From assembly GCF_006345805.1 (NCBI RefSeq), contig NW_021831989.1:62001-126000 (forward strand): a DNA stretch of 64,000 nucleotides, given 5' to 3'. The translations under genes and the position numbers were made by a program. A model generated the notes under the pieces. The model was not told the DNA's origin. It ran no database searches and saw only the letters and a program-made list of their open reading frames with translations. The stretch comes from Octopus sinensis. Taxonomy: Eukaryota. Every line of letters begins with the position of its first letter. Position 1 is the stretch's first letter. Positions 42,323-44,208 of this stretch are shown piece after piece.

Positions 42323-44208
42323 ATGGGAGCTTTACGTTATTTCTTTGCTAAAATAAGTTTTTGTCGATTATGCATTCTCTCAATTCTATTCAAAGTTCTT
42401 CTGTTTCCTTTATAGTATGAGAATTTATTAACTTACAAGTTTCTCAACTGACTTTGAAGTTCACCGACATTGGCTTTCCATTGTCAGTACTCTGCCAATA
42501 AAGAATTGGTACAAAGACGTATTTTTAATATTTGATTTTCACTTTTAGGAAACTTCTCAATGGACTCTTGATTATCCACCTTTCTTTGCTTGGTTTGAAT
42601 ATATACTGTCATTCCCTGCTAAATATTTTGACCCAAACATGCTCCAACTTTCAAAAAATTCTTATGTCTCTGATTCTACAGTTCTCTTTCAGAGATCTTC
42701 CGTCATTCTTGCTGAGATATTTTATTTAGTCGTCATAAATCAGTAAATATCTTAGACTTGTAACTTTTAGGTCGTTCAAGACATTTGAAGATCATTTCGG
42801 TAGATTTAGTAACCCTTCAAAGCAGTTTATTAGGATTTTTATGATTTTCAACTTTTCCATCACTTTGGTGGACAGTATCCTTTTTTAATACTTTTTACTC
42901 GTCTTTTTATATTCCTTAAAAAATATATATTCATTTTCAATACAACTACCTCTTCATGGCCGTACTTATAATGTCTGTTACAGAAATGATCAAAGTATTT
43001 ATTTCTTTGTATTTTATTGGGAAAATATATTTTATCCGCTATTCTTTTTTCAATTTTGGTGAATTTAAAACATCTTTTTTTGCCTCTTGCTCCGATATAC
43101 GGAATTGTTCTATTCCGGCAGTATTGTGTAATTCGGCCTAATGGTATTCCTTGGGTCTCTATTTAGGTCGATGGGCATATATTTCGCTAGAGAGAGTACT
43201 CAATCTTGTAATTGTTGTCCTTGTTGTTTTTTCCTTATCTTTTGGTCCGTTCATTTATTATGTATATTAATAATAATATATCCTTGAAGAACGTGCTTTC
43301 GGATGTATTTTCGCGACTTTTTCCATTCGGAAGGGGACTCTGTCATTCTTATTGGGCTCCGAATTTTTGGGCTTTGTATTCAATAGCGGATAAACTACTC
43401 TTTCATTATGGTTTTGTTAATTTTTAGTTATTTTAGAATGCTATTTTGGCTTAAAAGCAAGGCTAAATTGCAGTGTAGTCGGACACATGACTGGGGGAGT
43501 TGTCAAACGGGTTGTACCCCTGTCGTTGCCCGACATAACTCCTCAGTACACGTTCTATATATACGTGGCATCTATTCTGGTAAAACGATTTATTATTTTT
43601 GTTTAATTAGTCTTATTTATGATTTATTTTAGCCATTCATTTTCAAAATATTGTTCTGCAGTGTCAAAAATGTTGATAAAGTTTTTCTCAGGTCATTGTT
43701 CGTCGGTTCGTTCGCATCGTTCATGTTTGGATGGCATGTCCACGAAAAGGCTATAATTATCCCTAATCTTTTAATGGGGTATGTTAGTAGTTTTTAAAAT
43801 TGTTAGTCTCTTACTTTTTTGCGACAAATTCTCTCGACGTGACATAGTTATATTTTCTACTGTTGCTAACTTTTCACTCATTCCTCTGATACATACGCCA
43901 AATGGTAGTTTTGGTAGTTTATTGGTTTAGAGACTCCGATTGTTCTTGTCTTTCTTTTTGTTATAACCTTAATTCTTATAGAACTCACACGAAATGAAGA
44001 AATGAAAGGATTGTTTTTCCTTTGGAAATTTGAAATGATTTATTTGTGTGGTTTTTTATGTGCAATCTTGTATTGCTATTTGGGTCATCCGTTTTTTGAT
44101 TCGAGAAAAGTCTACCCTTTTCTGCCGACGTTGATTGTGAGTGTTTTTGGGGCTATTGGGAATGCATATTTATTTGTCATTTCCTATGTAGGTTTACTGA
44201 TTAATTGA
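42323..44208 (+). CDS. ALG8: Dolichyl-P-Glc alpha-1,3-glucosyltransferase ALG8
   Basis: [81 protein letters not shown]. Confidence 0.95.
42875..42926 (+). other. Putative U12-type (minor) intron in ALG8
   Basis: 5' splice site GTATCCTTT, branch-like TTCCTTAA at 42912-19, no AG in the interval. Ending at 42926 (..AT) restores V-D-N-I-H-F-Q-Y-N. Confidence 0.8.

Follow-up and report, generated by a model that had tools for sequence, protein, structure and literature searches.

Does an animal whose introns have shrunk to a median of 26 nt still keep a minor spliceosome? The question is raised by one intron in the 64,000-nt stretch of contig NW_021831989.1 that we analysed (hereafter the window), which belongs to an assembly labelled Octopus sinensis. 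The intron lies in the gene for ALG8 (Glc1Man9GlcNAc2 alpha-1,3-glucosyltransferase), recognised through its PF03155 homologues and located at 42323..44208 (+) with 12 exons and 11 introns. Once spliced, the modelled frame stays open for 513 aa, with 41% identity to human ALG8 over 514 alignment columns, and the intron lengths of the model agree with the gaps in two of the contigs introduced below (X2 and X4). Intron 4 of this gene, at 42875..42926 (+), is a U12-type intron with GT-AT ends. It is 52 nt long and in phase 1, inside codon N157.

The source organism of the window is very probably a dicyemid parasite of octopus. One protein, from a 670-kb contig, matches the query exon at 100% identity and bears the label Octopus sinensis from its source. 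The ALG8 of the window reaches 41-43% identity to its molluscan and human counterparts, and these share 52-58% with one another. A second, deeper and unlike ALG8 contig accompanies the window-type ALG8 in both X2 (depth 155 vs 7) and X4 (57 vs 15). The window contig is probably a parasite contaminant of the octopus assembly. Dicyemids live in cephalopods, and Dicyema sp. has a median intron of 27 bp (PMC6543705); the mean is 24.9 in D. acuticephalum (PMC2483917). Among animals, the accessible portion of PMC13644364 gives introns under 30 nt as reported for myxobolids and Dicyema only. Weak donors and no branch signature have been described for Dicyema introns (PMC2483917, PMC13644364). With dicyemid micro-introns, those of D. 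japonicum included (PMC6736024, PMC13644364), the window has in common a median intron of 26 nt (about 25-27 being expected), weak donors and a similar GC content (~35%, vs 36.7% in D. japonicum; PMC6736024), and it came from octopus material yet is distinct from the host. Intron 4 departs from those descriptions in having both U12 signals. In an ALG8 tree of 28 rows, for which 27 of the 101 homologues were picked by hand, the window sequence sat on a long branch (2.64) and in no supported set; no dicyemid-labelled row was present among the ALG8 homologues listed. A ciliate source was rejected, as the modelled exons are free of in-frame TAA and TAG.

An earlier note on this DNA had proposed a U12-type donor at 42875, GT-AT ends and an interval without AG, all of which held. 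The 5' splice site GTATCCTTT (42875..42883) is an exact RTATCCTTT and matches at 7/7 of positions +3 to +9, against at most 5/7 in the 20 other introns modelled in the window. The branch motif TTCCTTAA (42912..42919) scores 8/8, against at most 6/8 in the same introns. Its position about 7 nt from the 3' end was also as proposed, but the full TTCCTTRAC was not recovered: eight of nine positions match and the final C is an A. The predicted branch A is 42918 or 42919, at the start of a six-A run, and the terminal AT (42925..42926) closes the intron 7 nt after the last A of the motif or 8 nt after the preceding one. The motif falls inside the branch search region of intronIC, -55 to -5 (PMC7367187). 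Downstream of the donor, AG first occurs at 42982-83. Over the two strands of the window, RTATCCTTT with TTCCTTRA within 80 nt was matched once; 200 dinucleotide shuffles gave 0.02 matches on average, and the rough chance of a 7/7 donor plus an 8/8 branch motif is 7e-7 per intron. The donor 9-mer alone is not rare (three seen, 2.2 expected); the other GTATCCTT sites, at 19754(-) and 31938(-), were rejected as donors and read as coding sequence. At 5697-5740 (+), ATATCCTTT is followed 19 nt on by TTTCTTAA, probably by chance.

Those 20 other introns, in ALG8, fumarase and RPF1, show what ordinary splicing looks like in the window. Their median length is 26 nt, 19 of them measure 23-30 nt, and nine of the donors start with GTAT. 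Two are not GT-AG. One is a 29-nt fumarase intron (32643-32615, minus strand) with GC-AG ends, found with both of two bacterial templates; the other is ALG8 intron 5 (42995..43019, +), a U2-like intron of 25 nt with GT-TG ends, directly after exon 5. Intron 5 was picked by one of two templates in spliced alignment, X1 shows no change in it, and its removal fits X4, where bin depths are short by 14 + 11 nt at this place. A 19-nt GT-AG alternative (42977-42995), also picked by one of the two templates, was rejected because it misfits the X4 gap positions. Since intron 5 ends in TG, acceptors may be generally relaxed in this genome, and non-AG ends need not be U12-specific. A U12-branch-like motif alone can also arise by chance, as U2-like intron 7 (43262-43289, +) ends in TCCTTGAAG, with such a motif hard against its AG.

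The reading frame places the end of intron 4 at the AT. Exon 5 (42927..42994, +; 68 nt), which has non-AG-ended introns on both sides, encodes the conserved IHFQYN motif, and an intron end at 42926 yields D-N-I-H-F-Q-Y-N in the product. HFQYN is present in 84 of 101 ALG8 homologues and absent from 17; in 81 of the 84 it is preceded by D-x-(I/V/M), with DHI in 71 and DNI in two, which bears out the claim that ending at 42925-26 gives the best fit to D-x-I-H-F-Q-Y-N. A spliced aligner that penalises non-AG ends still picked 42875-42926 for both templates. The alternative in-frame ends at 42920, 42923 and 42929 were rejected, as each gains or loses residues relative to D-x-I-HFQYN. So was the next AG (42983), with which the frame is kept but 19 aa including HFQYN are lost, leaving 494 aa. 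Retention of intron 4 leads to a stop after 160 aa. A public, octopus-labelled model of 272 aa (P0001), identical to the ALG8 of the window, joins exon 3 to exon 8; it is without the stretch of exons 4-7 and skips both non-canonical introns. Introns like ALG8 intron 4 are probably mis-annotated, and P0001 is a case in point.

Is this the same intron that vertebrates splice with the minor spliceosome? The earlier note had named ALG8 as a minor-intron gene of vertebrates, and the human minor intron is indeed catalogued, at chr11:78119250-78121064 on the minus strand, with a length of 1815 nt (PMC6717393, PMC7507305). At its donor ACC precedes GTATCCTTG, and its branch sequence is CTTTCCTTGACC (PMC6717393); the mouse counterpart measures 323 nt (MIDB, PMC6717393). 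Human c.478+3 corresponds to g.78121062, in intron 4 (PMC10454741), which puts the start of the minor intron at c.478+1, one base into codon 160. Human H160 aligns with N157 of the window, and both introns are in phase 1. Therefore, the suggested comparison with human ALG8 gives an identical codon position and phase. Gene, codon position, phase 1, the donor GTATCCTT and a TTCCTTRA branch motif are common to intron 4 and the human and mouse minor intron. Intron 4 differs from the human one in its length (52 nt vs 1815 nt) and in the branch sequence, which is TTCCTTAAA here and TTCCTTGACC in human.

To examine splicing, we compared assembled contigs of four runs (X1-X4) out of 14 listed, leaving out X5 (share 0.08) and nine with a share of 0.00. 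X1 is a DNA contig and the closest to the window; X2 comes from the same sample as X1. X3 represents a second strain, unspliced and ~5% divergent with 109 differences, and X4 a relative ~96% alike from another study. None of the runs is recorded as RNA; we read X2 and X4 as such because they have contigs without introns and a second, intron-free ALG8. Each splicing state is represented by one contig. Record 21 of X4, 1253 nt long at a depth of 14.7 and with 47 other letters, runs straight from 42874 into 42927; the 52 nt left out have GT..AT at the edges, and there is no slide ambiguity. The junction that the earlier note had named as a check is thus found exactly, in a single contig of a relative ~96% alike. 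Further gaps of 28, 102, 53 and 54 letters in X4 correspond to the modelled introns 3, 5-8, 9 and 10-11, and the 102 letters decompose into 25+23+28+26 for introns 5-8. X2 gives the other state: its record 9 covers 42320-42953 in 551 nt (634 - 83), with introns 1-3 out and intron 4 kept at full length. The stretch 42954-43289 is uncovered in X2, and this carries no weight here. Joints of 1119-1121 nt (two, in X2 and X4) and of 343 nt (one, in X3) were rejected as splicing, as they have hundreds of letters between their sides and derive from an unlike ALG8 sequence.

The base at 42926, proposed for a check of T versus G, is unchanged in X1. Record 1 of X1 (depth 54) covers the gene from end to end, unspliced, and differs from the window at 13 listed places, none of them in intron 4; its single gap is outside that listing. 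Every T>N change in X1 is placed away from 42926. The T>G changes, two in X1 and two in X2, are all elsewhere (42807, 43674), while one T>C of X2 is outside the positions listed. X1 may itself be the assembly source of the window, so it is not fully independent for this base. RNA editing of 42925-26 to AG was rejected, as it would require a T to G change. The junction is thus seen in the relative sampled by X4 and the T in the sample closest to the window, and the AT is presumably used in the window's own population as well. For X3 the listing covers mainly positions up to 42908; in it, the first 20 bases of intron 4 are without differences, and 42895-42918 has four substitutions (42895-42908) and one base deleted at each of 42910 and 42918. 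With all 23 gap letters of X3 listed, its intron 4 measures 50 nt and its U2 intron 9 measures 36 nt, 17 nt shorter than in the window. Although X2 and X1 come from one sample, they differ at three places at 43879-43886 (+); that sample likely holds a mixed parasite population.

GT-AT is a known class of U12-type intron. Conserved animal minor introns include 319 of this class, a share of 0.433% (Larue and Roy 2023, Table S1, PMC10639083), and four human and three mouse examples, including DEADC1 and SLC24A6, were given by Sheth et al. 2006 (PMC1557818); such introns are reported to splice productively (PMC1557818, PMC4176328). Intron 4 has the terminal pair, the U12 donor and the branch motif in common with them, and stands apart in its length of 52 nt and its mere 7-8 nt from predicted branch A to end. 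This spacing is below the reported optimum of 11-13 nt (PMC3584512), and X3 is short by one further base (42918). PMC5378181 cites at least 8 nt as a general limit; the lower limit of U12 branch spacing is taken from a review. The value of intron 4 lies in its lineage and short predicted branch spacing.

Intron 4 had also been described as about twice as long as its neighbours, which is true of the 19 other introns of 23-30 nt but not of the GT-AG, U2-like intron 9 of the same gene (43580..43632, +), whose 53 nt are skipped by an X4 joint. The accompanying proposal of a larger minimum size for U12 introns was not established, as it was drawn from one intron and ALG8 contains this 53-nt U2 intron too. 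X3, in which U2 intron 9 has 36 nt and the U12-type intron 50 nt, is a weak hint in favour of a U12 size floor. Blastocystis ST1 offers a parallel, being a parasite with very short introns (more than half of them 30 bp) whose U12 introns are kept somewhat longer, at a median of 39 bp (PMC5608401, PMC10639083). Unlike the animal here, Blastocystis is a stramenopile; its minor introns number in the hundreds and are mostly AT-AC, and all of its minor snRNAs and proteins have been identified. As Blastocystis minor introns are shorter than 52 nt, intron 4 sets no length record for eukaryotes.

Elsewhere in the window, neither an INTS7-like gene (21420-23600, +; Pfam match) nor an INTS4-like gene (~50900-53600, -; weak match, E 0.003) showed an intact U12 signature in the motif scan. 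Human INTS7 and INTS4 carry minor introns, and those of the two genes here may have been lost or converted. Long ORFs at 11125-14080 (-), 59170-62064 (+), 62412-64000 (+) and 656-3445 (+) presumably resemble reverse transcriptases of non-LTR retrotransposons, and 62412-64000 nearly repeats 12500-14080, reversed. Two similar charged, proline-rich ORFs without a Pfam match, at 36824-37507 (-) and 38760-39401 (-), are possibly a tandem duplication.

Intron 4 is probably the ancestral ALG8 minor intron, kept at the position of its human counterpart, reduced to 52 nt and AT-ended, in what is likely a dicyemid, and is likely removed by a minor spliceosome. An unlikely alternative is that the intron descends from a U12-type intron, that the minor spliceosome is gone, and that a major spliceosome with relaxed 3' ends now removes it. 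The GT-TG ends of the neighbouring intron and the GC start of the fumarase intron (two of 20 others not GT-AG), the GTAT of nine ordinary donors, the predicted branch spacing under the U12 optimum and the INTS7-like and INTS4-like genes without an intact signature all fit this; U2-like GT-AT and GT-TG introns also exist in mammals (PMC1557818), and loss of the minor system is reported for Myxozoa, whose introns are just as short (PMC10639083). Against it, both U12 signals are intact in a genome whose ALG8 forms a very long branch, no donor difference is listed in X3 despite its ~5% divergence, and U12-to-U2 conversion normally proceeds via donor mutations (PMC3584512).

Two other readings accept the U12 type and concern the last base. 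The AT could be a recent change from AG that splices poorly here while the relative in X4 still has AG. This would suit the retention of intron 4 in the sole covering contig from the window's closest sample (X2 record 9), the ~96% likeness of the spliced X4, whose own genomic intron end could be AG, and the two T>G changes that X3 has beyond the differences listed. Retention, however, is expected for slowly spliced U12 introns, normal-ended ones too. Moreover, the T is common to the window and X1, which differ at 13 other places, the remaining 513-aa frame is intact, and GT-AT is a working U12 pair (PMC4176328, PMC1557818), so that we regard a recent change as improbable. That 42926 is an assembly error for G in an ordinary GT-AG U12 intron is scarcely credible: the base stands in a low-complexity A/T run and X1 may be the source sample of the window, but X1 record 1 leaves intron 4 unchanged at depth 54 and the T>G changes of X1 and X2 lie elsewhere.

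If intron 4 is the ancestral minor intron, U11 would pair with GTATCCTTT and U12 with TTCCTTAA, and the 3' cut would be placed chiefly by how far it lies from the branch site, so that no AG would be required; the G...T ends of the intron are a pair reported as accepted by U12 splicing. Its removal would likely be slower than that of U2 introns of ~26 nt; this would account for the contig that has lost introns 1-3 and retained intron 4. As ordinary dicyemid donors are very weak and have no accompanying branch signature, it would likely take selection to keep exact U12 signals from decaying. It is likely that the animal still keeps a minor spliceosome. An Rfam search of the 64-kb window gave no matches at the gathering score or at E<=1, a result uninformative for the rest of the genome. 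More tentatively, and less likely than not, the dicyemid minor spliceosome may be compressed, cutting 6-8 nt after the branch A without AG and failing much under ~50 nt, while the major spliceosome handles 23-30 nt and accepts non-AG ends.

Loss of minor splicing is on record for several fast-evolving animal groups, namely nematodes, myxozoa, oikopleurids and tardigrades (PMC10639083). Dicyemids are absent from the text and supplement of that pan-eukaryote survey, which left out introns under 30 bp and mentions the orthonectid Intoshia linei in the legend of a figure. U12 is unmentioned in the accessible portions of PMC6736024 and PMC13644364 on D. japonicum, and U12 status is not discussed in that of PMC2483917 on Dicyema introns. 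No report on the minor-splicing status of dicyemids was found in the literature searched, whose coverage excludes most subscription papers. Our results suggest that a second, minor splicing machine likely survives in the dicyemid phylum, which the literature searched had not reported before. An orthologous U12 intron that is still present and spliced suggests that the minor spliceosome need not be lost when introns shrink to an extreme. Both a U12 size floor and a shortened branch-to-acceptor rule are now testable with existing Dicyema genomes, and a compressed minor spliceosome, if real, would provide a natural measurement of the size limit for bridging an intron by U11/U12 in an animal.
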